In this document: in pieces, positions 16,375 through 31,245 of the stretch
Position numbering within the stretch: the stretch's first letter is position 1
Layout of the letters: every line of letters begins with the position of its first letter
Virus record (IMG/VR): IMGVR_UViG_3300045996_000936
Location: 523-64,522 of that record
Origin: a virus
Lineage: Duplodnaviria > Caudoviricetes
DNA length: 64,000 nt
Reading direction: 5' to 3' (one strand)
Translations under genes and position numbers: made by a program
The notes under the pieces: model-generated
Databases searched by the model: none
Seen by the model: only the letters and a program-made list of their open reading frames with translations
Told to the model about the DNA's origin: nothing

Positions 16375-17483
16375 TACTCTTCTTCGTCCTCCAGCTCTGG
16401 GAAGAGCTTCTCGCGCACCTGAAAGCCGGTGCGATCGCCGCGTGAGCAGATCTTCAGGAACTCACACGCTCCGAACTTACCAAGACATGTCGCTGAGTTG
16501 CGGAAGTGGAACTTCCCTTCGCTCCAGTCGATGATCGTTCGCATAATCCCATCGAACTCCAGGAGCCAGCGTTCCTGCTCACTGGGAGAGATGGACACTT
16601 CATACCGCATGAAGTAGAAGCCTGGACGTTCGGCGATGTCGAGCCGCACACGCTCGGCGAACTGCTGCATCGATTCTGTCTTCCGGCGTCTCAACTGCGG
16701 ACGTCGAATGATATTGTAGACCACGCCCTGAGGGATTTCAGCATACTCCACCGACTGTGAGAGGAGGTAGAGGTTAACCTGGAGGTCCAGCGGGATCATG
16801 TCGATGATGTTGTCTTCCTCGACCTGCCCCTTGGTCTTGGTCTCGAAGAGCCAGAGTCCCTTACCGATTCGCAGGTCGCCGTCGCGCTTCCCTCGCAACG
16901 GGATGTCCTCGATCTCCCTCTGCAGGCGTTGCCTTGCGGAGTAGTTCACGGAGAACTTCCTCTCCAAAGCCAGCCACTTGTACCGGGATAGATCCTCCTC
17001 CCAGTGCTCGAAGTATGCCTCCAGTACCGGCTCTGCCAGAGCGTAGTTATCCTCCAGGTCCTGCTGAGCATTCGGGTCCGAGGGAGGGAAGAGTCGGAAC
17101 TTCTCCATATCCCGCTCGTACATTAAGTCCAGCACGCCCTTGACTGCGGCACGGTAACCTGTGTCCTTCTGGTAGGTATAGACGCGGTCCAGGGCATTGT
17201 GAACGATGTTCCCGAAGGCTAAGGCACCGGAGCCTCTCCCGGTGGTCAGTCCCTCGTTCATCGTCAGACGGTGTCTCTCCGGGCAGCCGAGGAATCTCTG
17301 GAGAAGACCCTGGGTCACCCCGTCCCGGTGCAGCATCCACATTGGCGTAGGAGTAGCCTTGAGGGCGCAAGGCTTCCCTCGAACCGGCATCGCAGCCAGG
17401 GCGTCCAGGTTCGCTTGATGGGCGTGAGGCTTTCTGGGAGGCAGGGCAGTGCCTGGCTTAATCAACGGGATAGTTCTTCGCAT
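16374..17483 (-). CDS. PD-(D/E)XK exonuclease (Cas4/AddB-like)
   Basis: CP..H, FGNIVHNAL, LE..F, GKRD, FETKT, QVNLY, C-terminal C..C..C. Confidence 0.88.
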   Translation of the reverse strand: MRRTIPLIKPGTALPPRKPHAHQANLDALAAMPVRGKPCALKATPTPMWMLHRDGVTQGLLQRFLGCPERHRLTMNEGLTTGRGSGALAFGNIVHNALDRVYTYQKDTGYRAAVKGVLDLMYERDMEKFRLFPPSDPNAQQDLEDNYALAEPVLEAYFEHWEEDLSRYKWLALERKFSVNYSARQRLQREIEDIPLRGKRDGDLRIGKGLWLFETKTKGQVEEDNIIDMIPLDLQVNLYLLSQSVEYAEIPQGVVYNIIRRPQLRRRKTESMQQFAERVRLDIAERPGFYFMRYEVSISPSEQERWLLEFDGIMRTIIDWSEGKFHFRNSATCLGKFGACEFLKICSRGDRTGFQVREKLFPELEDEEE

Positions 17484-18030
17484 ATCTCAGCTCCTTGATG
17501 TAATCCTTTAGACGTTCGACCCACTGCTTGTAGAGTTCTGTTTCGACGCCTCCCTCGCGAAGGATATGGGATGGGTGGTAGGCTCCTCGGTACTCCACCC
17601 AGTCTTGAGTTACTGTGTAGTTCTGGCTGAGGTGGCCGAGCTGCAGGACCATGCGAGGGCGGAGGATCTCCAACAACCCGACCAGCCTGGGTCGACACGC
17701 CAGGATCTCCTCCTCGCTTGCCGTGCGGTTCTTCAGCGCGTTCCTCCGCTCCTGCGGACGGCAGGCCAGGAGGTTCGTGTAGCAGATCGTCAGGTCCTGA
17801 ACTCCGATGGCTTTAAGCGTCCGGCGTAGCAGCCGACCAGACCTCCCGTAGAATGGCCGACCCTGGAGGTTCTCGACCATGCCTGGTCCCTCCCCGACGA
17901 TCATGAGGTCCACCGTCTCACTCTCTGGAGAAGACAACTCGTAGAGCACGTGATGCCGAGCGAGTTCGCCCAGTGGACAGCGTCGGCATTCCGACCAATC
18001 CTCGTTCAGTACTTCAAGTGGTGTCTTCAT
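17458..18030 (-). CDS. Uracil-DNA glycosylase, family 4 (Fe-S)
   Basis: CRRCPL, VGEGPG, GRPFYGRSG, TNLLACRP, YHPS. Confidence 0.93.
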   Translation of the reverse strand: MKTPLEVLNEDWSECRRCPLGELARHHVLYELSSPESETVDLMIVGEGPGMVENLQGRPFYGRSGRLLRRTLKAIGVQDLTICYTNLLACRPQERRNALKNRTASEEEILACRPRLVGLLEILRPRMVLQLGHLSQNYTVTQDWVEYRGAYHPSHILREGGVETELYKQWVERLKDYIKELRYAKNYPVD

Positions 18031-18904: not shown

Positions 18905-19079
18905 TGTCTCCTCCAGCAGAGCAGTACGGGCAGTTATGGAACTTAACCCTCGCAGGCTGACTCGCACAGCCGCAATGCTTAAGCGACGTCTTGCATGTGA
19001 CGCAGCGCATCTGGAAGTGCACATGGTCGACTCTGCCCGGTGCCCAGACCTTCTTATTTGTTAGCCCTACGGTCGGCAC
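18873..19079 (-). CDS. Small Cys-rich (Zn-binding) protein
   Basis: CVTC, HCGC and CPYC motifs; fills the gap between neighbours. Confidence 0.5.
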   Translation of the reverse strand: MPTVGLTNKKVWAPGRVDHVHFQMRCVTCKTSLKHCGCASQPARVKFHNCPYCSAGGDNDRASQDTNR

Positions 19080-20547
19080 GTTCGTATCTCCTTTCCAGTA
19101 CCAGCTGGTCTACGCTCTTCATCATATGCTGCGCTTTCCAGACCTTCTTCTTCACCTTGGCGAGGACGCCCTCTCCGATCAACCCCTTGAAGACCAGGTC
19201 CACAATGAGAATGTTGGTCTTCTTCAGAGGATGATAAAGCCGGTCCTCGCTTTGGGCGCGAGCTTCGCAACTCCACGGGTTAGAGTAGTAAATCTCGGCG
19301 TCCGCCACGGAATAATCGCTTCCGTACTTCGCCACTTCAGCCGTAGCCAGCAAGATCCTTGCCCCTCGACCTCGGAACGCTTCCATCGCCGCCTTCCTGG
19401 AGAGAAGGGAATCTCCGCCCAGGATGGAGGCACATGGAATCTTCGCCTTCAGGAGAGCTTGTCGAACGAACTCGACTTCGTGCCGGAAGGCGAACCAGAC
19501 GACTACCTTCTGCTGGGACAACTCGCCCTTGAGGAGAACCATCAGCTCCTTCAGTAGGCCGTCGTCTATCAGGTTGCGCTCCGGGTCGAAGCCACCGGCC
19601 AAGTGCCGGAGCCAGCTGACCTGCTCCAGCTTCCATCCGGTCTCTCGGACTCCTCCGGAGATCAGGTCGATCGCATACTCCTCCTCCACCTGTTCGTGGA
19701 GTCGGCGCAGGCGAGGACACGGAAGGATCTGACGCTTATGGTAGACCTTGAGTTCCGGCATCCCGGCGTCCGCTCGACGCTTGAAGAAGGCACGCCGATG
19801 CAAGTAAGTACGCATCCGCATTGCCGTGCCCGGTTTCGGGTACCATCCGTATCCGTTGTAGTCCTGGGTGAAGAGCTTGTCGCGGAGATGGTAGTAGTTC
19901 CTGAAGCCCATGCAGTGGCCGTCGAGGAAGATCATCTGCTGCACCGCGTCCAGCTCGCCTTCCGGCGTGGGGAGACCGCTCAGGATTGCCCGGTGTCGAG
20001 CCTCTCGGAAGCCTTCGCAGAGGAGGATGCTGGTCCAGGCGGCTGGCGACTTGATCCGGGTGCTCTCGTCCAGGATGACCGCGTCCCAGGGTATCTTCGC
20101 CATGTGTGGGAGGAGGTAACTACGCTTGAGGTACTCCTCCATCTTGCCATCCTTCCATCGTCGCCGACGCGAGAGCTTAACCGGCGCGGAGGCGAGGAAG
20201 GCTTCGTAGTTCATCAGAAGCCATGTTCGCCTCCCGGCACCGAATGCTCGGATGACCGCCAGGTCTCGACCTATCTGGTTCTTACCATAAGCCGTGACGA
20301 TGGTCTCGCCTTCCCGGCGTAACTCCGCTTCCCATGCCTCCAGGACGGTCACTGGCGCCATGACGATGATGGTGCGGAGACCCTTAGCAATGGCCCATCG
20401 GATCGCGACCAGGGTCTTACCCAGTCGCATCTCCATGAACCACGCCGGGTGGTCCCATTCCATCCCGTAGCTGAACGCCTCTTCCTGATGAGTGAGAAGG
20501 TGTCTGAACGGAACGGTCGGAACTGGCCGAGCCGGGATTGTCCGCAC
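19054..20547 (-). CDS. SNF2-like (SF2) helicase/ATPase
   Basis: MEMRLGKT, NYE, ILDES..IK, LSGLP, QSEDRLYH. Confidence 0.92.
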   Translation of the reverse strand: MRTIPARPVPTVPFRHLLTHQEEAFSYGMEWDHPAWFMEMRLGKTLVAIRWAIAKGLRTIIVMAPVTVLEAWEAELRREGETIVTAYGKNQIGRDLAVIRAFGAGRRTWLLMNYEAFLASAPVKLSRRRRWKDGKMEEYLKRSYLLPHMAKIPWDAVILDESTRIKSPAAWTSILLCEGFREARHRAILSGLPTPEGELDAVQQMIFLDGHCMGFRNYYHLRDKLFTQDYNGYGWYPKPGTAMRMRTYLHRRAFFKRRADAGMPELKVYHKRQILPCPRLRRLHEQVEEEYAIDLISGGVRETGWKLEQVSWLRHLAGGFDPERNLIDDGLLKELMVLLKGELSQQKVVVWFAFRHEVEFVRQALLKAKIPCASILGGDSLLSRKAAMEAFRGRGARILLATAEVAKYGSDYSVADAEIYYSNPWSCEARAQSEDRLYHPLKKTNILIVDLVFKGLIGEGVLAKVKKKVWKAQHMMKSVDQLVLERRYERADRRANK

Positions 20548-20549
20548 GT

Positions 20550-20843
20550 CTACTCTCTGGAGGTAAGGGTCTTGATCGCCTTGCGGATCCGCTTCAAGTT
20601 GCGGTCGTAGCGCGGCAGGGAGTTGCGGATATAGGAGACTTCGCGGTCAAGCTGGATGGTCCAGCCTTCGGCTGCTCCAAGGAAGTCCTCACGGGTTACA
20701 TGAGGGTCCCGAGCAAGGAACTCAAGGTCGTCCTGCAGTCGGCGTATACGCTGGCAGGCGAGAGAGATGCCGGAGATCTTGGAGAGCGTCGAGGAGACTT
20801 CGTCCATGACCGGCTTGTTACGCTTAAGGATTCTGTTAGGCAT
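20550..20843 (-). CDS. Hypothetical protein
   Basis: 97-aa ORF abutting the helicase start. Confidence 0.6.
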   Translation of the reverse strand: MPNRILKRNKPVMDEVSSTLSKISGISLACQRIRRLQDDLEFLARDPHVTREDFLGAAEGWTIQLDREVSYIRNSLPRYDRNLKRIRKAIKTLTSRE

Positions 20844-20862
20844 GTTAGTTCAAAATGAAATA

Positions 20863-20895
20863 GGGACCGAAGCAGTAAATCCTGCAGTCGGTCCC
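20863..20895 (-). terminator. Hairpin with T-rich tail (terminator or attenuator)
   Basis: GGGACCGA...TCGGTCCC stem, then TATTTCATTTT on the - strand. Confidence 0.6.
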
Positions 20896-20923
20896 GCTTT
20901 CGGTGGGGAGGGAGTTACCAAGT

Positions 20924-20953
20924 GTTAGTTCGCCGGAACCAACCGGGATACCT
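20924..20953 (-). promoter_or_regulatory. Class II promoter motif
   Basis: AGGTA-N16-CGAACTAAC. Confidence 0.6.
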
Positions 20954-20964
20954 TCTTCGATACT

Positions 20965-21702
20965 CTAAGCGTGAGCTCCCTCGTACTTCATGTACAGGTT
21001 GTAGACTCCGTCCTTCTTCTCTACCCGATGAATCCGGGTTCGGGCACCTCTTCCCAGAAGAATTTCGGACTCCCCTTTGATCCCGAACATATTCTGGGTA
21101 ACTGAATCGTTCGCTCCTAAAGGCAGGGTAGGGGTTCTGGCAGGAAGCTGAATGTACATACGTACAATGTTCGTTCCACGCTTGTGACCGTCAGACGCAG
21201 TGGTGGAGCTGTATCCAGCATGCTCCATCAGATGCCCTGGCCCTACCTCCCCACTCTCCAACTTTGCGAGCAGGCCTTTCCCTCCGATCTGAGTAGTTCG
21301 TATGTCCCGAACCACGATCATCTCGCCGTTATTCTTGTAGGACTTCCGGAGAGCGGAGTCGATGTTCGAGACCCTATCCTCAACGAACGGAGTAAGAGGC
21401 TTACCGGATACCAGTCCTCCGTTAATAGTCTTGAACTCTATCCCTTTGTAATCAGCAAGGGAAGCTTCCTCAGCCTGAGTTAGGTTCTTGGTCATGTTGT
21501 ACTTCGCGTCTCGACTCCATCGCTGAGCTTCGGATCTTTGGCGCTTGAATTCTTCGCTCCCTACCTCAGGGAATTCATCCTTGAACGCCGGGAGGAAAGG
21601 AGTTGATGAAGGTCCTGGGGGATTTGGCGTTGGCGGTGGAGTTGACGCGCCCGGTGCAGCTCTAACTCCCGCAGTTGTACTTGCCGTACCTCTACTACCC
21701 AT
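20965..21702 (-). CDS. MGSRG-leader ADP-ribosyltransferase (VIP2/C3-like R-S-E clade) no. 2
   Basis: Y...F..IN..L, IDSAL, VVRD, GYSSTT, GESEILL; likely start MGSRGTAS at 21702. Confidence 0.88.
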   Translation of the reverse strand: MGSRGTASTTAGVRAAPGASTPPPTPNPPGPSSTPFLPAFKDEFPEVGSEEFKRQRSEAQRWSRDAKYNMTKNLTQAEEASLADYKGIEFKTINGGLVSGKPLTPFVEDRVSNIDSALRKSYKNNGEMIVVRDIRTTQIGGKGLLAKLESGEVGPGHLMEHAGYSSTTASDGHKRGTNIVRMYIQLPARTPTLPLGANDSVTQNMFGIKGESEILLGRGARTRIHRVEKKDGVYNLYMKYEGAHA

Positions 21703-21703
21703 C

Positions 21704-22072
21704 TTACTGCCTCCATGCCTTGCGGATCTCGGCCTTCCGATCGGCGAGCGCTTTCTGGAGAAGAGCACGCTCCCGTTCAGTCAGACTCTTGCGGCGGAGG
21801 AGCTGCTCGATCCGGATGGCGCCATCGACGAAGGTCTGCCCATCCTCCGAGTTGAGGGTTTGTAGCCCTCTCGCGCTGATGTCGGACGTATTCTCTCCAG
21901 CGAGTCGAGCGGCCTGAGCGGTCGTGACGGAGTTCCGCCAGCGGGTTGCCTGCGCTGCCGAGACGCCGGGTGGACGCCGACCCTCCGCAACTGCCGTAGA
22001 CTCGTTGCTACGGTCCCCGCCTCCTGGACGCGCTGCCGTGGGCCTGGTTGATGCGCTTCCTCGACTACCCAT
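21704..22072 (-). CDS. MGSRG-leader protein of unknown function
   Basis: 122 aa starting MGSRGSAS; 1-2 nt from both neighbours. Confidence 0.8.
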   Translation of the reverse strand: MGSRGSASTRPTAARPGGGDRSNESTAVAEGRRPPGVSAAQATRWRNSVTTAQAARLAGENTSDISARGLQTLNSEDGQTFVDGAIRIEQLLRRKSLTERERALLQKALADRKAEIRKAWRQ

Positions 22073-22074
22073 GA

Positions 22075-22731
22075 TTACTGCTCCAGCGTCACGTAAAGAG
22101 TAGGCCGAGTTCCGTTCTTTATCGGACGCTCCTCAAACCTCTGAATCTTGAACTTCGAGTTCCTAGGGAGGAGTATCTCGCGCTCATTCGGGGACTCCGA
22201 CAACGCCTGCAGAGGCAGAGCCTTAGAACCCTTCGGAACCAAGATCTGAATTCTCAAGACTTCCTTCTCGGCTCGGAAGGACTTACTGGCGGTGGTGGAG
22301 CTATAACCCTTGTAGGAGATAACGGCTCCGGGTTCGATAGTACCATTCCGTAACCCGTCAACTAGACTACTGCCGTGCCCTCCTACACGCTCGGTCGTGA
22401 GATCTCTAGTTACAACCATGTCCTCCGGAGTAGAAGATCTCGCAAGAGCGGAGTCGATGTTCTTGATTTTCGCGTCCGTCTTCGGACCGGGAGACCTCTC
22501 TTCCAATAGGGACCTATTAATTGTAATATAGTCCTCGCCGGTGTAGTCGGATAGAGCACTCCTCTCTCCAGGTGAGAGCTGAGTAGCCTGGAGCACTGAC
22601 CCGGAGAAGTTATCGTAAGCCTCGGAGGAGGACCTGAGGGCAGCATATTCCGCGCTGCCCTCCTCCGGGATCCGAGTACCAATCGCGGCACGAGTCCCGG
22701 AGGTGCCGCTTGCCGCGCCGCGACTGCCCAT
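22075..22731 (-). CDS. MGSRG-leader ADP-ribosyltransferase (VIP2/C3-like R-S-E clade) no. 1
   Basis: YTGEDYITINRSL, IDSAL, VTRD, GYSSTT, NEREILLPRNSKF. Confidence 0.92.
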   Translation of the reverse strand: MGSRGAASGTSGTRAAIGTRIPEEGSAEYAALRSSSEAYDNFSGSVLQATQLSPGERSALSDYTGEDYITINRSLLEERSPGPKTDAKIKNIDSALARSSTPEDMVVTRDLTTERVGGHGSSLVDGLRNGTIEPGAVISYKGYSSTTASKSFRAEKEVLRIQILVPKGSKALPLQALSESPNEREILLPRNSKFKIQRFEERPIKNGTRPTLYVTLEQ

Positions 22732-22732
22732 C

Positions 22733-22885
22733 CTACTTGCCCTTCCCCTTACTCGTCCGCCCCTTCGGTGCAGGCGTGATCTTGACGTCCGACTCCTTCA
22801 TGACGAACCGGTCCGGGATCTTCGCTCCGGACTTGGTCGAGCTGGACTTCCCGCTTGCCGTAGTACCCTTCTTCGCTGCTGCCAT
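22733..22885 (-). CDS. 50-aa basic peptide (not in the ORF track)
   Basis: MAAAKKGTTASGKSSSTKSGAKIPDRFVMKESDVKITPAPKGRTSKGKGK*; AGAGGA RBS; stop 1 nt before the ART start. Confidence 0.8.
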   Translation of the reverse strand: MAAAKKGTTASGKSSSTKSGAKIPDRFVMKESDVKITPAPKGRTSKGKGK

Positions 22886-22921
22886 GGTCGTTCATCCTCT
22901 GGAGGAAAGGAGTCCTCCGGC

Positions 22922-23701
22922 TCAGCGTAGGCGAATGCCTCGCTCCTTCTTGTAAGCTTCGAGCACCTGCATGCTGGTCGACCCGGCGCGGAGATCGAAG
23001 ACACCTTTGTTCTCCTCTCCGTGCTCTTTCCACCAAGCTGCTCCGCCAGGACGAGAGAAGAGGTCGTGAGTATCCTTTACTCCAGAGAATCCTGCTCTCT
23101 CCGCACGCTTCTGCACCGGCTCCTTGATCGGGATATTATATCCTAGCCTGGCCCAGGTGTAGAATCCGTTGTACGACTCCTTCTTGCTCCAGGTGGGATG
23201 CTCTTTCCCTACGCCTGCAGCGAAGGTTTCAATCCTGTCTACACCCTGCCTGGCCGCACCTTCCGCCTGTGCAGCGAAGAGTCGGGTACCGATTCCGGAC
23301 CCTCGATTCGCTTTCATCTCGAAGCTGTCGTTATACAAGACTAGCTTGCCATCTTCCCTCTTGATCGTTCGTTCCTGAACGAAGTCAGGATGGGTAATCT
23401 TCAGGTAGACGACTTTCGGAGTGAGAGGGTTGGCGACAACGTCGACCCGTGCTCCGGTAGGCGCTCCTGTAAGTTCCAGGATTTTGTCTCCTCTCATCTC
23501 AGTGCCGACAATGGCGCTAAGATTATTGAGAGCTTCGGCGTGACCGTAGACCCTAGCCTTCTCTTCAGAGTACAGACTTGCCGTGACCTCATCAGGACCC
23601 TGCGGACCCTGCGGAGCCGGTGGTTCATTTACTGGAGCAGAGGCATTGGAGCCGATCGCGGCTCTCCCGGCGTCTCCGCTTCGTGTGCCTCTACTTCCCA
23701 T
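22922..23701 (-). CDS. MGSRG-leader GNAT-family acetyltransferase
   Basis: NRGSGIGTRLF (acetyl-CoA motif A), NGFYTWARLGY. Confidence 0.82.
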   Translation of the reverse strand: MGSRGTRSGDAGRAAIGSNASAPVNEPPAPQGPQGPDEVTASLYSEEKARVYGHAEALNNLSAIVGTEMRGDKILELTGAPTGARVDVVANPLTPKVVYLKITHPDFVQERTIKREDGKLVLYNDSFEMKANRGSGIGTRLFAAQAEGAARQGVDRIETFAAGVGKEHPTWSKKESYNGFYTWARLGYNIPIKEPVQKRAERAGFSGVKDTHDLFSRPGGAAWWKEHGEENKGVFDLRAGSTSMQVLEAYKKERGIRLR

Positions 23702-23857
23702 CTACTTACCTTTTCCCTTCTTCGGGAGGACGGACTTCCAGGCCTTGTCCAGAGCCTTCTCGTCCGTGCCGGTCAGGCGAGGAGCCTGCTCCACCTTCTT
23801 CGGAGTGGCCTTTGCTCCAGAGGAGGTCTTACCCTTCGTGCTTGCCGTACGTGCCAT
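23702..23857 (-). CDS. 51-aa basic peptide
   Basis: MARTASTKGKTSSGAKATPKKVEQAPRLTGTDEKALDKAWKSVLPKKGKGK*; TAATG overlap with DUF4417; stop abuts the GNAT ATG. Confidence 0.8.
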   Translation of the reverse strand: MARTASTKGKTSSGAKATPKKVEQAPRLTGTDEKALDKAWKSVLPKKGKGK

Positions 23858-24531
23858 TACATGATCCCCTTTCCGTGGTAGTACTCGTCCCACTTGGACG
23901 GGTAGACTTGCAAGATGCTCAGCTTCCGGAGGGACTCTGGCACCCTTCCGTAGAAAACAATGCGTCTGGGTTGGAGTCGCTCTCGCATGGCAGCGAATCC
24001 GTGGAGGAAGGCTTCCCTGGTCTCGGGGTACTTGTACGTACCGACGCTGGAGACCGCGACGGTCGCCCTGCGTGGAAGACCAAGGAAGCACCATTCGTAG
24101 GAAGTAGGGTCGCTCCAGCAAATGCTCGGAATAACATCAAGTCCCTCCGCCTGCCATAAAGCCATGCACCAGCAGTTACGATACCAATTGTACTGCTGGA
24201 CAACCAACGGCCAGTCACAGAAAAGGCTGAAGTCCGGACCGAGCGCCATGCCGACCTCAAGGAGCCGAGTCAGAGCCACCGCCGGACGGCTCCATACTGT
24301 CTCGAACTTGTTGTCGCTGAGGAAGAAGTGGACCGCCGTCCTCCCCTCCCTCGGCACACGGGTTAGCTGGTTATACGCGACCATCCCGGAGGGTAGCTCA
24401 CCCTTGTACGCCTTAACGTCCGCGAATCCATATGGGTTGCTGCTGGGGAACTTGACGCTGAGCTGGCGACCCAGGAAGCCGTCGCCTCCCTGGAGAGAAG
24501 CGAACTCGGACGCGGAATACTTACGGTACAC
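23857..24531 (-). CDS. DUF4417-family protein
   Basis: VHFFLSDNKFETVW..P, PDFSLFCDWP..VQQYNWYRN, Q..G.DVIPSICW, CFLGLP, VAVSSVG, L.P..IVFYG. Confidence 0.88.
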   Translation of the reverse strand: MYRKYSASEFASLQGGDGFLGRQLSVKFPSSNPYGFADVKAYKGELPSGMVAYNQLTRVPREGRTAVHFFLSDNKFETVWSRPAVALTRLLEVGMALGPDFSLFCDWPLVVQQYNWYRNCWCMALWQAEGLDVIPSICWSDPTSYEWCFLGLPRRATVAVSSVGTYKYPETREAFLHGFAAMRERLQPRRIVFYGRVPESLRKLSILQVYPSKWDEYYHGKGIM

Positions 24532-24551
24532 TGGCGAGGGACCTCCGTTTG

Positions 24552-24582
24552 GTTAGGTTCGGCAAGGGCGAGCAAGATTCCT
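24552..24582 (-). promoter_or_regulatory. Class II promoter motif upstream of the DUF4417/MGSRG operon
   Basis: AGGAA-N16-CGAACCTAAC followed by a GGAGGT RBS. Confidence 0.7.
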
Positions 24583-24590
24583 GCAGGCAC

Positions 24591-24827
24591 CTACTCCAGC
24601 AGCTGATAGGCCGAGATCGAGATCACCTCCACGCGACGGATCTCCACCCGACAGCTCTGTCTCTCCTCAGGATTGAAAGTACCGAGCAGGATGGTAATCG
24701 TACGCTCAATGTCCTCCATACTCCCTGCAAGCACTGTACTTTCCAGAGGCTCCACGCCGGGAGTGTATACGATGATCTTCGCCTCGATTGGCTTAGAGTT
24801 GTCGGGAGGATAGGACCTCCTTACCAT
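24591..24827 (-). CDS. Hypothetical protein
   Basis: 78 aa with GGAGGT RBS. Confidence 0.6.
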   Translation of the reverse strand: MVRRSYPPDNSKPIEAKIIVYTPGVEPLESTVLAGSMEDIERTITILLGTFNPEERQSCRVEIRRVEVISISAYQLLE

Positions 24828-25081
24828 TCGATACCTCCGAGAGGAGGTCGGTCCATGTCTATCTCAAGAAGAGGATTCTCTCGAACCATCTTAGCGACGG
24901 TCGGCTCTCCGGTATCGATAAGGAGCTTGAAGCCAGCGATCATACTCTTGTAGTCCTGCTCGTCGGAGACTTCGGTTAGTATGACCTGTCCTCGAACCGG
25001 GCAGACGTAGCATATGATAACTCGGCCTAGGTTCGAGTAGCGTTCATAAGCTACAACCCATCCTGCGGGTATCTCTATCAC
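24821..25081 (-). CDS. Hypothetical protein
   Basis: 86 aa with GGAG RBS. Confidence 0.6.
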   Translation of the reverse strand: MIEIPAGWVVAYERYSNLGRVIICYVCPVRGQVILTEVSDEQDYKSMIAGFKLLIDTGEPTVAKMVRENPLLEIDMDRPPLGGIEW

Positions 25082-25136
25082 TTCTCTTCTCCAGAGGGAG
25101 GCACTCCCTGGAAGAAAGCGCCTCCCTAACGTCGGC

Positions 25137-25352
25137 TTAGAAATCGCAGATCTTGAGAGTACCGTCCGTCCGGAGGAATGACATCTTCCGGTTCTCCTCG
25201 TCTGTCTCGACTGCGGTGATCTCGAAGTCGATTCCTACGTTCCTCAGCTCAACTGCCTTACTTACTCGGGCGTCGGACACTTCGAGGAGTTCCCTTATTA
25301 GCTCCCTCCTCCTCGCGCTCAACTCCATGTATTCTTCCACCAGCGGGTTCAT
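25137..25352 (-). CDS. Hypothetical protein
   Basis: 71 aa with AGGAG RBS. Confidence 0.6.
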   Translation of the reverse strand: MNPLVEEYMELSARRRELIRELLEVSDARVSKAVELRNVGIDFEITAVETDEENRKMSFLRTDGTLKICDF

Positions 25353-25815
25353 GTGCCGTCTCCTGACGGAGTACTGTCCGTCTCAGGTTCGCTCCTACGG
25401 TCTGCGGGTTGACTTCAAAGCCTTCCAGCAGCTGCTCCTCCAAGATGAAGTCTAGGAAGAGAGGGTCGTCGGCGTGGTTCCGACAAAGACTCAGTACGAT
25501 CTCGTAAGCGTAGATCCAGTCGCTCGCCTCGACTACCTGCGGGTTCATTGGTGTAGTCTTCATCTCCGCTGAGCAGTACCGCGTGTAGACTCCCCAACGA
25601 ATCCCATGCTCACCGAACACCCGGACCATGACCAGGGATGGGCTGATATGGGCGTAGTCCGTCTCGGACTCCAGGTACTGCGCGTTCCAGGTTTCCCGCA
25701 CCCTCTGAGCCACCGCCTCAGCGAAGTCCCCGACTCCGTTAGGCCGGAACTCGAATAGACGTTGCGGTGTGAATCTCTGACCTCCAAACATGGGCTGTTT
25801 ATTGCCGTACAGCAT
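25258..25815 (-). CDS. Hypothetical protein
   Basis: 185 aa; 3' end overlaps the next gene. Confidence 0.6.
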   Translation of the reverse strand: MLYGNKQPMFGGQRFTPQRLFEFRPNGVGDFAEAVAQRVRETWNAQYLESETDYAHISPSLVMVRVFGEHGIRWGVYTRYCSAEMKTTPMNPQVVEASDWIYAYEIVLSLCRNHADDPLFLDFILEEQLLEGFEVNPQTVGANLRRTVLRQETAHEPAGGRIHGVEREEEGANKGTPRSVRRPSK

Positions 25816-26431
25816 TCTGGTCTACCTTCCTAGCGGGTACCGTCCGCCGGTTCACTCCCTGGAGAGAATGGATCAGGGTCGCCCACTCGTAAGCGGACTC
25901 GGTCACTTCGAAGGCTGAGCCTTCCGCCAACGCCGCGTAGTCTTCTTCCAGGAAGTCGTAATCCCAAGGGAAGACCGTGGCGTACTCCCGGACGATATCG
26001 CGCAGTGGCGTCTTCGAGGGCCAGACGTAGGGGAGGTCCGGACCCTCTGTCCATCCCCACTGCCCGTACCAAGCTGGGTCCTTCCGGAGGAGGTTGCTGC
26101 GATGGCTCGCATGGTAGCTGACTGAGCACATCCACGCCGGAGCGTTGGAGCCTTCCCGGACGACCGGAAAGGCTCGGAAGCGTCCCAGCAGGTTTGCGCT
26201 GTCCGAACCGCCGATGTCCAGCCAGACCTTGCAAGCGCAGACGCCATAGAAGCGCAGGTAGTTCTCACTGCCGCGCCACTGCTGCACAGCCGGATGGTTC
26301 TGCCAGCCGTAGTCCGGACGAGTCAGAGCCTGGAGGATCTGCCAGGCTTCAATGCGCTGCTTGTTCAGGCGACGCCGGTCCAGCACATGCATGGACCGAA
26401 TAAAGTCAGGGTAAGGGAGGAAGGTTTGCAT
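25799..26431 (-). CDS. Pyrimidine-dimer DNA glycosylase-like protein (MSMEG_6728 / endonuclease V-like)
   Basis: MQTFLPYPDF..S..VLD.RRLNKQRIEA.QI, NHPAV..W, HASHRSNLLRKDP..Y, LPYVWP. Confidence 0.85.
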   Translation of the reverse strand: MQTFLPYPDFIRSMHVLDRRRLNKQRIEAWQILQALTRPDYGWQNHPAVQQWRGSENYLRFYGVCACKVWLDIGGSDSANLLGRFRAFPVVREGSNAPAWMCSVSYHASHRSNLLRKDPAWYGQWGWTEGPDLPYVWPSKTPLRDIVREYATVFPWDYDFLEEDYAALAEGSAFEVTESAYEWATLIHSLQGVNRRTVPARKVDQNAVRQ

Positions 26432-26433
26432 CG

Positions 26434-26520
26434 TTATGGCTTCGAGAGAGCGAAGAGGACCAGCATACCGATAACCAGCCCGAACGTGAAGCAGATAACT
26501 CCAACAAGGATATAGTCCAT
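26434..26520 (-). CDS. 28-aa single-pass membrane peptide (not in the ORF track)
   Basis: MDYILVGVICFTFGLVIGMLVLFALSKP*; AGAGGT RBS; exactly fills the gap. Confidence 0.65.
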   Translation of the reverse strand: MDYILVGVICFTFGLVIGMLVLFALSKP

Positions 26521-26522
26521 GA

Positions 26523-26975
26523 TTACCTCTCGTAGAATTCGTAGTGAGCCTGGGAGTGGCCGACCTGCGCAACGCGGTCGGCGAAGACCTTCTGGAAACG
26601 AGCCTCTCGCTCGGCCTGCTCCTCACGGTAGCCTCGCTGCTGGCGGCGATACTCGTACTCGACCGGCTCGATGTTCTCGCCTTCCCAGGTTAGACCGTCT
26701 TCCAGCCAACCCATTAGGGTGTTCGCTCGGGTCTCCGGGTCGGCGTTCAGGAAGCGAGAGCCTTCGTGATCCTCGTGATCGCAGACCGCCCAGAAGTATA
26801 GACCGATGTCGGTTACCGCGTTGAGCGTCCGCCGGATCCTCCCCATCGCGTCGCACCGGAAGGTGACCAGCTCGTCTTCAGTCAGGTCTCCCCAGCTGTC
26901 CTTCTCGCCGTTCTCCTTCAGCCACGCCCACTCGTTCAGGAGCACGTTCAGGATCTCAGGTCGCTCGCGGTCCAT
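26523..26975 (-). CDS. Hypothetical protein
   Basis: Start MDRERP after GGAGGTGCAGT of a class I cassette. Confidence 0.7.
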   Translation of the reverse strand: MDRERPEILNVLLNEWAWLKENGEKDSWGDLTEDELVTFRCDAMGRIRRTLNAVTDIGLYFWAVCDHEDHEGSRFLNADPETRANTLMGWLEDGLTWEGENIEPVEYEYRRQQRGYREEQAEREARFQKVFADRVAQVGHSQAHYEFYER

Positions 26976-27432
26976 ACTGCACCTCCACTTGCTCGGCGAG
27001 AATGCCGAGGCAAGCTTGTTGTGACGCAACCCGGCAAGCGAGGGTCCTTTTTGCTGCGAACTGGCAGGCATCGACCCACTCCTGCCAGCCGTATCTCTTA
27101 ATCAAGGTATCCATGGAGGAGACCGCACCTCCATGGCAGAGTTGGTACAACAGCCAGTAATCCCCTTGCCGTGCAGGCACGAAGCCTCCTCGACCGCCGT
27201 AGGATTCAGGGCAGTGGTAGTAGCCTCCGGCGATGGCAGCGAGGGAGTAGGCCGTCGCCTCGGTCCACCGGCTCCAGTGCTGGAGGCTCTGGTCGTAGGG
27301 AGGGCAGGCGATGATGTCCCTCAAGCTCCAACGTTCCGCGTCCCGCTCGACGATGTCGCGGAGAGCCTCGCTGCTCAGCCGGGCGAAGGCTTCGAGGAAC
27401 GGACGCATGTCCCGGTCGGTTAGTATCTTCAT
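26956..27432 (-). CDS. Hypothetical protein
   Basis: ATGA-coupled start MKILTD. Confidence 0.6.
   Translation of the reverse strand: MKILTDRDMRPFLEAFARLSSEALRDIVERDAERWSLRDIIACPPYDQSLQHWSRWTEATAYSLAAIAGGYYHCPESYGGRGGFVPARQGDYWLLYQLCHGGAVSSMDTLIKRYGWQEWVDACQFAAKRTLACRVASQQACLGILAEQVEVQYGPRAT
26973..27038 (-). promoter_or_regulatory. Class I early cassette (CTTGCCGGG box, -10, 5' hairpin, RBS), degenerate -10
   Basis: CTTGCCGGGTTGCGTCACAACAAG-hairpin-GGAGGTGCAGTATG. Confidence 0.65.
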
Positions 27433-28658: not shown

Positions 28659-30599
28659 CTAGGAGCCGGGGACCAGGAAGAGCGTGTCCTTGGCACGGGT
28701 TACGGCCACGTATCGGAGGTTGGTCTCCTGCCGACGCTGCCACTCCTGGCTGCTCTTGCATTCGATCTCCGGGTTGAGCCAGAAGACGCGCTCAGCTTCC
28801 AGACCCTTCGCTCGGTGAATCGAGGACATGACCACCGCGTTCCGGCTGGAGGCATCTCCGCTCTCGAAGAGCGTGTTGATCCGAGCGATCAGGTCGGTCA
28901 CTGAGTCGGCGTCTTCCGCCAGAACTCGGACGCATTCCGCCTTGTCGGAGATCAACTGCACGGCGGTCTCCTCTCGGTTGGTTCCGGCGACCTTCGCGGT
29001 CTCCTTCGCTACCCAGGCGTCCACCTTGATCAGCAGGTCGTTCACGTCGGTCGCCTGGAGCTTCTGAACCAGGGTGACCAGACCCTGCCCGATATCGCGT
29101 CCCCGAACCACCGCCTTCATCCCGCGACGGACCAGCCGGAAGGCTACGCTAAGTAGCGGAGCGTTGCAACGGCAGACCATCATATCCCCTGGAGAGAGGA
29201 GAGCTTCAGCGCGGCTCTCGGAGACAGTCTCCACATTGCCGTGCTTCGCTTCAGGGAGTGCCTGGATCGAGGGAACATACTGCTGAGCCTTCGTCACCAC
29301 CGCCTTCGGGCAGCGTCGGGTCACGGTCAGCGGGAGCTGCTGAATACGCTTATGCGTTCCCTCCAGCAGCTTGCAGAAATTGTCGATACTGTTCACGTCG
29401 CTACCTCGGAACCCGTAGATCGCCTGGTGGTCGTCCCCGACCACAACCACGCGTCCACCCGGTGCCAGCAGCCGGAGAACCAGAGCATGCTGGACCCGGT
29501 TCAGATCCTGCGCTTCGTCCACGAAGATCACGTCATACTTCCGAGTCGGCAGGTTCAGGACCACCGGGAGCCAGAGCTGGTCGTTGTAGGACACGACGCC
29601 GGTTCGCTCTCTGGAAGAAAGGAGCACCTGAGGGACCAGCTCCAGAGCAGCATCTTGGTGTCCGCCTAGCTCCACCTCGTGCCGCTCGGCGATGTCCAGT
29701 AGGGCGTTCGGGTTAGTTCCGTCCAGGAGGTAACCCTGCGCCAGCTCTACCAGCCTCTGGGTTACGGAGAGCATCTCCCGGTAGTCCTCGTTGGTCAGCC
29801 GACCCGGAGGACACAGCTCGGTGATCAGGTTCTTCACCTTGGAATCATCCACCAAGACGCCAGGAAAGGCCGACTTAACCGTGCGGAAGCCGATCGAGTT
29901 CAAGGTGCAGACCGTGGCGTTGTCCGGAGCACCTTCTTCAAACTCCCGGACGATCTGCTTGTTGAAGGCGAGGTAGAGGATCCGAGCGGACTTCGGGAGG
30001 ACGCCCATACCAACACGGCAGGTGAAGGACTTCCCTGTTCCAGCGAGTGCCTTGACCACCACATGGTCGTCGCTGTTGGCGAGAGCGTTCCAGATCGTCT
30101 CCTGCTCCGGCGAACCGACCACGCCTTCGGGTAGCTCGACCGACTTAGCGGGAGCAGGAGCCTTCCACTGGCCGACCTTCTCTGGAGCAGAGGGAGTCTC
30201 CACCGGATTGATCCAGATCTTGCTCTTATAACCCTGGCCGTTGGTCCCCCACTGCGAACCGTTCGCGTCCGGCTTCATGTCGAAGCCTTGGGAGCGGCGG
30301 AGTGTCAGGTGCTTATTGTAAGCCTCGGCGCAAGTGGACCAATCGCCGCGAGCCACCTCAACGACGGAGTGCTCGTTCCATCCGCCCTTCCCGTCGCTCT
30401 TGTAGCGGAACTCGGTGACGGCCCAGAGGGTGGAGGGTCCGACCTCGACGTGCTTCGGGCAGTGCTCGTGGACAGTCTTGCGCGTCTCCGGATCCCACAG
30501 GATCGAGTCGCCCTTGGAGATCGGAGTGGGGCAGTGCTCGCACTTGCCTCCAGAGAACTTCGAGACGATCAAGCGAGCATTGGTCAGGTCCATCGACAT
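28659..30599 (-). CDS. UvrD/Rep-like SF1 helicase
   Basis: ALAGTGKS, LAFN, TLNS, FVDEAQD, VGDDHQAIYGFRG, RCP, SIHRAKGLE, YVAVTRA. Confidence 0.95.
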   Translation of the reverse strand: MSMDLTNARLIVSKFSGGKCEHCPTPISKGDSILWDPETRKTVHEHCPKHVEVGPSTLWAVTEFRYKSDGKGGWNEHSVVEVARGDWSTCAEAYNKHLTLRRSQGFDMKPDANGSQWGTNGQGYKSKIWINPVETPSAPEKVGQWKAPAPAKSVELPEGVVGSPEQETIWNALANSDDHVVVKALAGTGKSFTCRVGMGVLPKSARILYLAFNKQIVREFEEGAPDNATVCTLNSIGFRTVKSAFPGVLVDDSKVKNLITELCPPGRLTNEDYREMLSVTQRLVELAQGYLLDGTNPNALLDIAERHEVELGGHQDAALELVPQVLLSSRERTGVVSYNDQLWLPVVLNLPTRKYDVIFVDEAQDLNRVQHALVLRLLAPGGRVVVVGDDHQAIYGFRGSDVNSIDNFCKLLEGTHKRIQQLPLTVTRRCPKAVVTKAQQYVPSIQALPEAKHGNVETVSESRAEALLSPGDMMVCRCNAPLLSVAFRLVRRGMKAVVRGRDIGQGLVTLVQKLQATDVNDLLIKVDAWVAKETAKVAGTNREETAVQLISDKAECVRVLAEDADSVTDLIARINTLFESGDASSRNAVVMSSIHRAKGLEAERVFWLNPEIECKSSQEWQRRQETNLRYVAVTRAKDTLFLVPGS

Positions 30600-30662
30600 T
30601 CTACACCTCCTCGGCCTGCCCGGATCGGCAGGACCACGCTTATTATGGCGCAACCCGGCAAG
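30597..30662 (-). promoter_or_regulatory. Class I early cassette
   Basis: CTTGCCGGGTTGCGCCATAATAAG-CCTGCC/GGCAGG hairpin-GGAGGTGTAGAATG. Confidence 0.8.
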
Positions 30663-30672
30663 TTTGACTTGG

Positions 30673-31245
30673 CTACTTTCGCTGGTCGAGTTCCTCGCGG
30701 CTTGCGCTGGAGTAACCACACTTGCAGACAGATCCGAGCGGACAGCCGCAACGACCGACCGGCTCCCTCTCCTGACGCTCCCTCTCGGCCTGCTCCTTCT
30801 CTCGCTGATCCTCGTCCAGGCGAGCCGTAATTCTCTGGAGAGGAGTGACCTTGATCCCGTAGATGTCAGCGAGGACCTCCCGAATGTAGTCCTCCACTGG
30901 CCTGCTCTCCAGGAGGTTCTGGACGCGGGTCCAGAAGGCGTCCTCCTCCGGGTCCGGAGGCTCTTCTGTCACCCTCAGCTCCAGGAGACTCGCCGGAGGC
31001 TCAGGGATCCGCTGACTAACGACCGCATCCCAGACGTGGCCGAGAAGGCAGGGAGCCTCAATCCGGTCTCGAACAATTGCACCGGTCTCGGTGACAATGA
31101 AGACAGAGTGTCCGCTGCCACGCTCAACGGCAACCACGGGACCGGAGACATCCCACTCGCGGTCATGCAGGCGGACCTCAGCGTGAGCTCCCCAAACCCT
31201 CCGCATCTCCTGCAGCTCGGAGATTAAGGCGTCTAGGTCAGCCAT
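30673..31245 (-). CDS. Hypothetical protein
   Basis: 190 aa, coupled to the upstream gene. Confidence 0.6.
   Translation of the reverse strand: MADLDALISELQEMRRVWGAHAEVRLHDREWDVSGPVVAVERGSGHSVFIVTETGAIVRDRIEAPCLLGHVWDAVVSQRIPEPPASLLELRVTEEPPDPEEDAFWTRVQNLLESRPVEDYIREVLADIYGIKVTPLQRITARLDEDQREKEQAERERQEREPVGRCGCPLGSVCKCGYSSASREELDQRK

Follow-up and report, generated by a model that had tools for sequence, protein, structure and literature searches.

A conserved N-terminal peptide on varied payload proteins accompanies DUF4417 in a widespread phage module

The 64,000-nucleotide stretch of DNA analysed here (hereafter the window; positions 523 to 64,522 of IMG/VR record IMGVR_UViG_3300045996_000936) covers almost all of a 64.5-kb phage record that is complete and has direct terminal repeats, and its minus strand holds every gene. 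At the locus under study, a gene encoding a DUF4417 protein is followed by four genes whose products start with closely similar peptides, with MGSRGTRS leading a GNAT-like protein, MGSRGAAS and MGSRGTAS leading two ADP-ribosyltransferases (ARTs) of the R-S-E type (ART1 and ART2), and MGSRGSAS leading a protein of no known family (Table 1). This succession, which the initial annotation had proposed, is confirmed by the open reading frame (ORF) coordinates and by the match of the first protein to Pfam PF14386. Scanning the full 64 kb in six frames for MG[SGAT][RK]G returns only four sites, each at an ORF start, and the four tagged ORFs sit no more than 2.9 kb downstream of DUF4417. The leader common to the four products extends over ~18 residues (MGSRGxxS[GT]xx[GT]xRAA[IP]G), with codons that, as had been noted, vary from gene to gene (Arg as AGA, CGC, or CGA; Gly as GGA, GGC, or GGT).

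The tight coupling that had been claimed for the four leader genes is evident at their junctions, where stop and start codons abut (TAGATG, TAGgATG, TAAtcATG, and TAAgATG) and a purine-rich, Shine-Dalgarno-like stretch lies upstream of each. The four genes are not contiguous, however, since two small Lys-rich ORFs that had been overlooked, sK1 and sK2, each precede a leader gene. The ATG of sK1 overlaps the stop codon of DUF4417 (TAATG) and the sK1 stop directly adjoins the start of the GNAT-like gene, with sK2 ending one base ahead of the ART1 ATG. A promoter motif placed ahead of DUF4417, at positions 24552-24582, is absent from the result of a sigma-70 scan of positions 19000-27000, which returns a single site, located within the GNAT-like gene, where chance alone would give 2.1. 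Taken as a whole, the initial description of the locus stands as to its anatomy, ARTs, codons, and payload-free MuF protein, and is not confirmed as to the promoter and the unqualified label “GNAT”.

The association of this tag with DUF4417 was assessed in 80 IMG/VR loci (595 kb), fetched with a DUF4417 alignment and kept from 88 confirmed DUF4417 relatives, with a tagged ORF defined as one of at least 50 residues having a start codon followed by G[GSK]R[GS]. Seventy-three ORFs beginning M-G-[G/S/K]-R-[G/S] lie beside DUF4417 (204 kb of adjacent sequence, on the same strand as DUF4417), compared with three in all remaining sequence (~1 Mb, both strands), and the enrichment of such starts next to DUF4417 homologues that the initial annotation had predicted is therefore strongly evident. 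The tag is present beside DUF4417 in 63 of the 80 loci and in 15 of 24 DUF4417 clusters (60% identity), six loci carry runs of two or three consecutive tagged genes, and tagged starts overlap the 3′ end of DUF4417 or fall within tens of bases of it. An origin of the tag as a by-product of this overlap was rejected, with the four genes of the window and the tandem arrays of loci L165, L169, and L201 having no overlap. The reverse approach, a DNA-pattern search of IMG/VR for MGGRSGQS, which samples one leader lineage from five DUF4417 clusters, yielded 13 matches, 11 of them beside a DUF4417 ORF and two with the look of chance. From the payload side, DUF4417 occurs in only three of 160 loci retrieved by means of the GNAT-like domain, and in all three it immediately precedes a standalone MGGRSGQS GNAT-like gene, with a small Lys-rich ORF between the two in one of these loci, as in the window. 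Across 29 aligned leaders, M1, G2, and R4 never vary, and residues 6–30 comprise 26% Gly, 16% Ala, 12% Ser, and 8% Pro. Tag codons vary freely, and the peptide is kept in AT-rich and GC-rich phages alike.

DUF4417 is found in at least 505 GenBank phage records, including those of mycobacteriophages L5 and D29 and streptococcal phage A25. A tagged gene directly follows it in eight of ten named phages (Journey13, Faith1, L5, D29, Remus, A25, Javan258, and Dulem virus 39), that of Journey13 and Remus being the annotated VIP2-like ART toxin; of the remaining two, SpGS-1 carries the motif internally and Hanem is without a tagged start. Seven of 11 DUF4417 loci in prokaryote genomes also show the tag, the other four starting MG[TG]G[FL][HY]GGFG. 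The association of DUF4417 with the MG[GSK]R[GS] tag is a widespread phage module of which the window holds one copy, such a module being defined here by a tagged ORF on the same strand and within ~1.5 kb of DUF4417 and by payloads that vary between phages.

The MG[TG]G[FL][HY]GGFG starts, which follow DUF4417 in the Clostridia-type prophage loci L270-L273, constitute a second leader class with no Arg at position 4, and a leader of this class likewise without that Arg, MGGCAGGGGFGG, occurs downstream of DUF4417 in locus L221. Annotated starts of several tagged genes differ from the tag start, lying nine codons downstream of MGGRG in A25 gp23 (L257 4151-4561), 29 codons downstream of the tag start in D29 ORF03 (L259 1072-2106), and preceding the tag by a single codon, at a GTG, in Faith1 gp116 (L243 4119-4475). 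The MGGRG ORF of L5 (L256 1081-2084) and annotated gp2 are in different frames within a Gly-rich stretch, a difference that could reflect either a break in the frame or an error in early sequencing. N-myristoylation of the eukaryotic kind and mimicry of histone tails, judged by consensus only, were dropped as explanations of the peptide, with no sign of a eukaryotic setting.

Table 1. Genes of the DUF4417 locus, other features of the window, and relatives of sK1 (window positions unless a locus is named)
Feature	Position	Strand	Evidence or remark
DUF4417 protein, 224 aa, GTG start	23857-24531	-	Pfam PF14386, E 1.8e-45
sK1, 51-aa Lys-rich ORF	23702-23857	-	sequence
MGSRGTRS leader + GNAT-like domain, 259 aa	22922-23701	-	sequence, AlphaFold2 (AF2) fold
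sK2, 50-aa Lys-rich ORF	22733-22885	-	ends KGKGK
MGSRGAAS leader + R-S-E ART (ART1), 218 aa	22075-22731	-	PF03496, E 1.9e-28
MGSRGSAS leader + 122-aa protein, no known family	21704-22072	-	sequence
MGSRGTAS leader, Pro-rich linker, R-S-E ART (ART2), 245 aa from ATG at 21702	20965-21702	-	PF03496, E 3.2e-15
97-aa ORF, no family	20550-20843	-	between ART2 and SNF2 helicase; membership of the operon uncertain
SNF2-type helicase	19054-20547	-	
UDG-superfamily protein	17458-18030	-	
Pyr_excise (T4 endoV-like) glycosylase	25799-26626	-	
UvrD-like helicase	28659-30719	-	
TerL, portal, MuF, scaffold-like protein, major head protein	52.7-63.5 kb	-	PHROGs scan
MuF (SPP1 gp7-type minor head protein), 365 aa	58464-59561	-	PHROG matches, TIGR01641
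sK1 relatives	L008 9731-9877; L002 11488-11619; L052 10653-10823; L127 6926-7093		beside GNAT-like genes

Behind this one tag stand 21 payload clusters, which bears out the proposal of a leader with a swappable payload. Pfam searches of 20 of these clusters identify ADPrib_exo_Tox in two and Gln_amidase, DUF3626, and DUF6883 in one each, with weak matches to Tox-ART-HYD1 and VapB, and 13 of the 20 match no family. R-S-E ARTs are characterised by Arg, Ser-Thr-Ser/Thr, and Glu-x-Glu motifs. Both window ARTs, as initially assigned, are confirmed by their PF03496 matches (ART1 99.6 and ART2 56.4 bits; cut-off 23.4) and by readable catalytic motifs (VVTRD/VVRD, YSSTTAS, and ERE/ESE). The PHROG matches of ART1 are to ART and MuF-fusion families and its nearest GenBank matches are MuF-ART fusions of Microbacterium phages, with ART2 matching phrog_595 and phrog_3895. 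A set of 5.8 billion proteins contains three weak relatives of ART1, none of them tagged. The 122-residue protein has no Pfam, PHROG, or NCBIfam match and no relatives in the sequences searched, and was rejected as a remnant of an ART N-terminal region, having only the leader in common with ART2.

The “GNAT” label for the MGSRGTRS product is suggested by fold and by one motif, and is not upheld by any family match. This protein has no match in Pfam, PHROGs, or NCBIfam, in GenBank phages (tblastn), or in the PDB by sequence search. Its AF2 model (pLDDT 73.9) shows residues 1–36 as a disordered linker (pLDDT <50), and all top PDB Foldseek matches are GNATs (E ~4e-4, TM ~0.3). Motif A of GNATs, R/Q-x-x-G-x-G/A, binds acyl-CoA, and RGSGIG forms a motif-A-like stretch in the window protein. 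Its two metagenomic homologues are P0006 (MGGRGSAS; 45% identity) and P0007 (MGSRGTSS; 39%), and a profile of the family matches 3531 representative proteins at E ≤1e-3, with most of the top matches being multidomain proteins of 800–3900 residues with up to four copies of the domain. Among the best 150 matches, 45 are shorter than 420 residues, of which nine start MG[SG]RG, eight of these from outside the window. Across 80 IMG/VR loci, this domain usually forms the C-terminal module of ORFs of 450–1700 residues, several of them MuF fusions.

The GNAT-like domain defines a large family beyond any Pfam, PHROG, or NCBIfam model. Its giant multidomain relatives (P0009-P0155; L002-L081) repeat short inter-domain motifs ahead of each domain, with [FW]DPxQPRDxxG[RK]W..GGGG occurring 28 times in the top-150 set and seven times in one protein, along with GNFGHAGRPGEVGGS and GHPFHGNQY; these motifs may represent a second kind of handle or a cleavage site.

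The sK1 family consists of Lys-rich proteins of ~45–55 residues with the core VE.PP.L(S/T)..DE..L..W and has no Pfam, PHROG, or NCBIfam match. Its members adjoin genes for the GNAT-like domain in five loci, including L052/L053, upstream or downstream and whether or not the tag is present, which indicates that sK1 partners the payload and not the tag. This conserved small protein accompanies the GNAT-like domain as a partner in its own right, and may act as its inhibitor, immunity protein, or substrate. For sK2 there is no match among 29,616 locus ORFs and no Pfam, PHROG, or NCBIfam family.

The DUF4417 protein itself scores 155.1 bits against PF14386 (cut-off 28.9), covering profile positions 3-173 of 183, and matches the “nuclease” family phrog_940 (E 6.8e-55) over the C-terminal half of that profile only. 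Structure prediction of this protein and co-folding with its leaders had been proposed, and the first of these gives a confident fold, with an AF2 model from a 29-sequence alignment (pLDDT 88.3) showing alternating beta and alpha elements in a TIM-barrel-like arrangement and with D73, E77, W80, S102, and P188 as invariant residues. Foldseek finds no PDB chain at E 1e-3 or better, the best being EAL phosphodiesterases (E 8e-3), and chains of tRNA-guanine transglycosylase (TGT) align to the model with TM 0.42-0.44 and E 0.2-0.4. In BFVD, the first neighbour from outside the family is a phage protein named queuine tRNA-ribosyltransferase (E 3.2e-4, TM 0.53), with three more proteins of that name within the first 11 ranks; the ESM Atlas gave no usable match. 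On this predicted structure, the fold class of DUF4417 is TIM-barrel-like, with phage TGT/DpdA-type proteins as its nearest neighbours outside the family. The likeness does not extend to sequence profiles, with the TGT profile PF01702 unmatched anywhere in the genome, an hhalign comparison of DUF4417 with a DpdA-like ORF not significant (E 0.16), and a search of the PDB by sequence with the DUF4417 profile giving only short Argonaute matches (E ≥0.009) that were taken as chance.

Fusions of ParB and DUF4417 are reported as frequent in the available text of bioRxiv 10.1101/2025.10.10.680097, and gp29 of SpGS-1 is such a fusion; the window phage has no ParB_N match and no preQ0 genes. In locus L081 (2858-6786), DUF4417 is followed by a small ORF, a MGGRSGQS GNAT-like gene, a ParB-like gene, and DpdA-like, QueC-like, and QueD-like ORFs, these last three named by eye from motifs, an order that places the module inside a 7-deazaguanine DNA-modification block.

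Co-folding of DUF4417 with 40-residue leaders provides weak support for contact between the two, with a score of 0.37 (runs of 0.31, 0.41, and 0.37) compared with 0.00 for the best of three controls, agreement between runs in at least 68% of contacts, and a partner pLDDT of 45-47. In calibration, 58 of 80 solved complexes and two of 110 mismatched pairs attained the mark, with scores of 0.60 or below belonging to only seven of the 80 solved complexes and to both mismatches.

The window MuF carries no payload, as had been stated initially, its 365 residues containing no extra domain, and the window payloads are separate genes ~35 kb away and not part of one polypeptide with MuF, the arrangement by which MuF polymorphic toxins are defined. 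Among the fetched loci, the window MuF is closest to MuF+GNAT-like ORFs of 553–609 residues (L030, L006, L045, L007, and L044; phmmer E 1e-37 to 1e-44). ARTs fused to MuF are considered to be packaged in the head in the available text of two studies (PMC9503650, PMC5512222). As payload families of the window also occur fused to MuF, the payloads belong to a repertoire that has been assigned to head-packaged, injected proteins. Furthermore, the module lies directly before TerS/TerL/portal in A25, SpGS-1, and Javan258, before HNH-TerS in cluster-A-type phages, and beside TerL elsewhere, and limited queries place it in a packaging-block position at 42 of the 80 loci.

As to the phage itself, a tRNA scan found no tRNAs, a megablast search with 20 kb of the window gave no match to GenBank phages, and a single-protein scan of IMG/VR with DUF4417 gave no usable relatives. 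The same scan with the SNF2 helicase returned one locus only (L001, 21% identity), again no usable relative, and the nearest TerL relatives are those of Salinibacter phages (38% identity). An NCBIfam scan that took in ten window proteins found only MuF and sub-threshold ART names. The closest DUF4417 proteins to that of the window (41–42% identity) are in Chloroflexota metagenome-assembled genomes (L264 and L265; Chloroflexi and Anaerolineae contigs), and one ORF downstream of DUF4417 in these contigs starts (TTG)GSRG, a window-like tag. Judged by sequence similarity, these relatives hint at the host of the phage. The surroundings of the module in the window are unusually rich in repair genes.

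Since payloads change while DUF4417 stays, the role of DUF4417 should concern the constant tag. The module consists of a DUF4417 gene followed by one to four genes starting M-G-[G/S/K]-R-[G/S], each encoding a tag, a disordered linker rich in Gly, Ala, Ser, and Pro, and an interchangeable effector domain, the putative effectors in the window being a GNAT-like acyltransferase, two arginine-type ADP-ribosyltransferases, and a 122-residue domain of no family. In the mechanism that we propose, the initiator Met would be removed, as expected with Gly as the second residue, and DUF4417 would bind or modify the exposed G-x-R-G end, the invariant Arg between small residues being the likely handle. The effectors would thereby be marked for delivery with the phage genome, by way of loading into the head and co-injection, and in the new cell they would modify host proteins early in infection. 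That DUF4417 recognises the tag and so marks effectors for delivery with the genome is a tentative reading, to which we give slightly less than an even chance. Of its parts, physical recognition of the tag by DUF4417, suggested by the gene association and the weak co-fold pass, is about evenly balanced, and loading into the virion as the purpose, suggested by the MuF fusions of payload families and the packaging-block position, is possible but the more doubtful of the two. The proteins presumed to be modified in the host are likewise a prediction.

Several results weigh against this reading. The strict tag is missing at 17 of the 80 DUF4417 loci, some of which have variant Gly-rich MG starts and three of which are cut contigs, and one MGGRG GNAT-like gene (L008) has no DUF4417 on its 41.9-kb contig (CheckV 42% complete). 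The motif is internal in gp30 of SpGS-1 and in ORFs of L018/L020 and L061, so that a free N-terminus is not always encoded. In the window, the module adjoins DNA-metabolism genes (UvrD-like and SNF2 helicases, UDG, and Pyr_excise) and is ~30 kb from the head genes, and late expression should therefore not be assumed here. The fold neighbours of DUF4417 act on nucleic acids or nucleotides and not on proteins, and the co-fold pass is weak, with the fold of the partner uncertain. Comparison of ten head-module ORFs with PHROGs gave no match to a stand-alone prohead-protease family (four of the ten had no match at all), with “head maturation protease” labels appearing only on matches of MuF to MuF-fusion families. 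A literature search, with supplements outside its range, found no virion proteomics for any tagged protein.

In one alternative, the tag would serve as a signal for head targeting or for ejection, and its reader would be structural, such as MuF, the portal, the scaffold, or the capsid interior. DUF4417 would in that case be a DNA-acting nuclease, or a TGT-like base-exchange or base-flipping enzyme with ParB-like partners, that merely has the same pre-packaging gene block and timing as the tagged genes. The occurrence of the same payload families fused to MuF, the closeness of the window MuF to the MuF part of MuF+GNAT-like fusions, the nucleic acid connection indicated by the fold neighbours and ParB fusions of DUF4417, and the tag without DUF4417 on the L008 contig are all consistent with such a reader. 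A shared block does not, however, readily account for adjacency so tight that starts overlap the DUF4417 3′ end or lie within tens of bases of it, nor for its persistence through changes of payload and outside packaging blocks (the window, and L051/L081 beside ParB and deazaguanine genes), with only three tagged ORFs away from DUF4417 in ~1 Mb of loci. We regard a structural reader as unlikely, and from the packaging-block position and the MuF-fused payload families favour recognition of the tag by DUF4417 leading to delivery with the genome.

A single constant protein beside many toxin-type payloads, together with the weak co-fold pass (0.37 against 0.00 for the best control), might suggest that DUF4417 is a chaperone or antidote that binds the common end and keeps the toxins inactive or stable in the producing cell, with no part in delivery. 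A tag of 5–8 residues on a disordered linker of 30–90 residues is nonetheless badly placed to block a catalytic domain, payload-specific small neighbours such as sK1 beside the GNAT-like gene look more like immunity partners, and the fold of DUF4417 resembles an enzyme with invariant Asp, Glu, and Ser. A chaperone or antidote role is accordingly one to which we give little weight.

The fold neighbours invite a further alternative, in which DUF4417 would be a TGT-like transferase joining the tag to a nucleic acid or nucleotide through the guanidino group of the Arg or the amine of the N-terminal Gly, with effectors travelling attached to phage DNA. DUF4417 would here be TGT-derived, its former guanine pocket taking the tag Arg or the N-terminal Gly and coupling the effector to phage nucleic acid or to a nucleotide handle. 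Besides the TGT/DpdA-like neighbours, the parallel between ParB fusion and the DpdA/DpdB pair, the Arg in every tag with small residues on either side, and the position of the L081 module beside DpdA-like, QueC-like, and QueD-like genes are compatible with this chemistry. Set against these are the want of a TGT link at the sequence level (no Pfam TGT in the genome; hhalign E 0.16) and the difficulty of picturing protein-laden DNA passing through the portal, unless the protein sits at the DNA end; moreover, we know of no precedent for joining a tag to nucleic acid in this way. Such a transferase, and the TGT-derived pocket with it, is improbable, although, if true, covalent coupling would mean that effectors enter the host attached to the incoming genome, a new route of protein-nucleic acid conjugation and delivery. 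Finally, a common start that serves only as a translational device, for coupling or re-initiation after an upstream stop, would suit the abutting or overlapping stop and start codons and the purine-rich stretch ahead of each ATG, but is very improbable given that the peptide is kept while its codons vary in AT-rich and GC-rich genomes, is tied to one neighbouring gene family, and also occurs internally in fused proteins.

The link between DUF4417 and the tag has consequences beyond the window. The association gives DUF4417 a testable function, and accounts for the VIP2-like toxins at the left end of cluster A genomes, the role of which is called “unclear” in the available text of PMC7302621. 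The tag is also a simple sequence rule by which phage effectors without a family can be found, and which corrects the annotated starts in A25 gp23, D29 ORF03, and Faith1 gp116 and flags a possible frame break in L5 gp2. If the tag does direct delivery, it could be transferred to other proteins as a means of placing cargo in phage particles.

Among known systems, the internal protein (IP) locus and Alt of phage T4 resemble the module in grouping variable genes, one for an ADP-ribosyltransferase among them, under a short conserved N-terminal peptide, and in delivering effectors with the DNA, as is proposed here. The capsid-targeting signal of T4 is N-terminal, comprises ~10 residues, and is cut by the prohead protease. 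In contrast, the tag described here is MG[GSK]R[GS] with a Gly-rich linker, its constant neighbour is DUF4417, which T4 lacks, and the ten head ORFs scanned include no match to a stand-alone prohead-protease family. The available text of PMC5512222 describes T4 Alt as packaged in the head, and treats phage polyvalent proteins. Like the payloads here, MuF polymorphic toxins and polyvalent proteins include Alt/VIP2-type ARTs and GNAT-like, deamidase, and peptidase-type toxins. Those proteins share with the module a constant part and a swappable C-terminus, with the payload fused to MuF or strung with others in one giant protein, whereas each payload of the module has its own gene and is tagged by just a few residues, the MuF is bare, and DUF4417 is a linked gene. 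The TGT-fold and ParB-fold pair of the DpdA/DpdB 7-deazaguanine system, as set out in the available text of PMC10164549, is comparable to DUF4417 with its often fused ParB-like domain; however, DUF4417 has no sequence-level membership of that family, the window has neither ParB_N nor preQ0 genes, and Dpd systems, unlike the DUF4417 module, have no tagged protein partners. A full-text literature search with DUF4417 and the leader strings, supplements again lying outside it, found no description of the pairing of DUF4417 with the tag. Within the literature searched, the tag with its DUF4417 partner is therefore new, and joins systems in which the logic of constant targeting with swappable effectors is already known.

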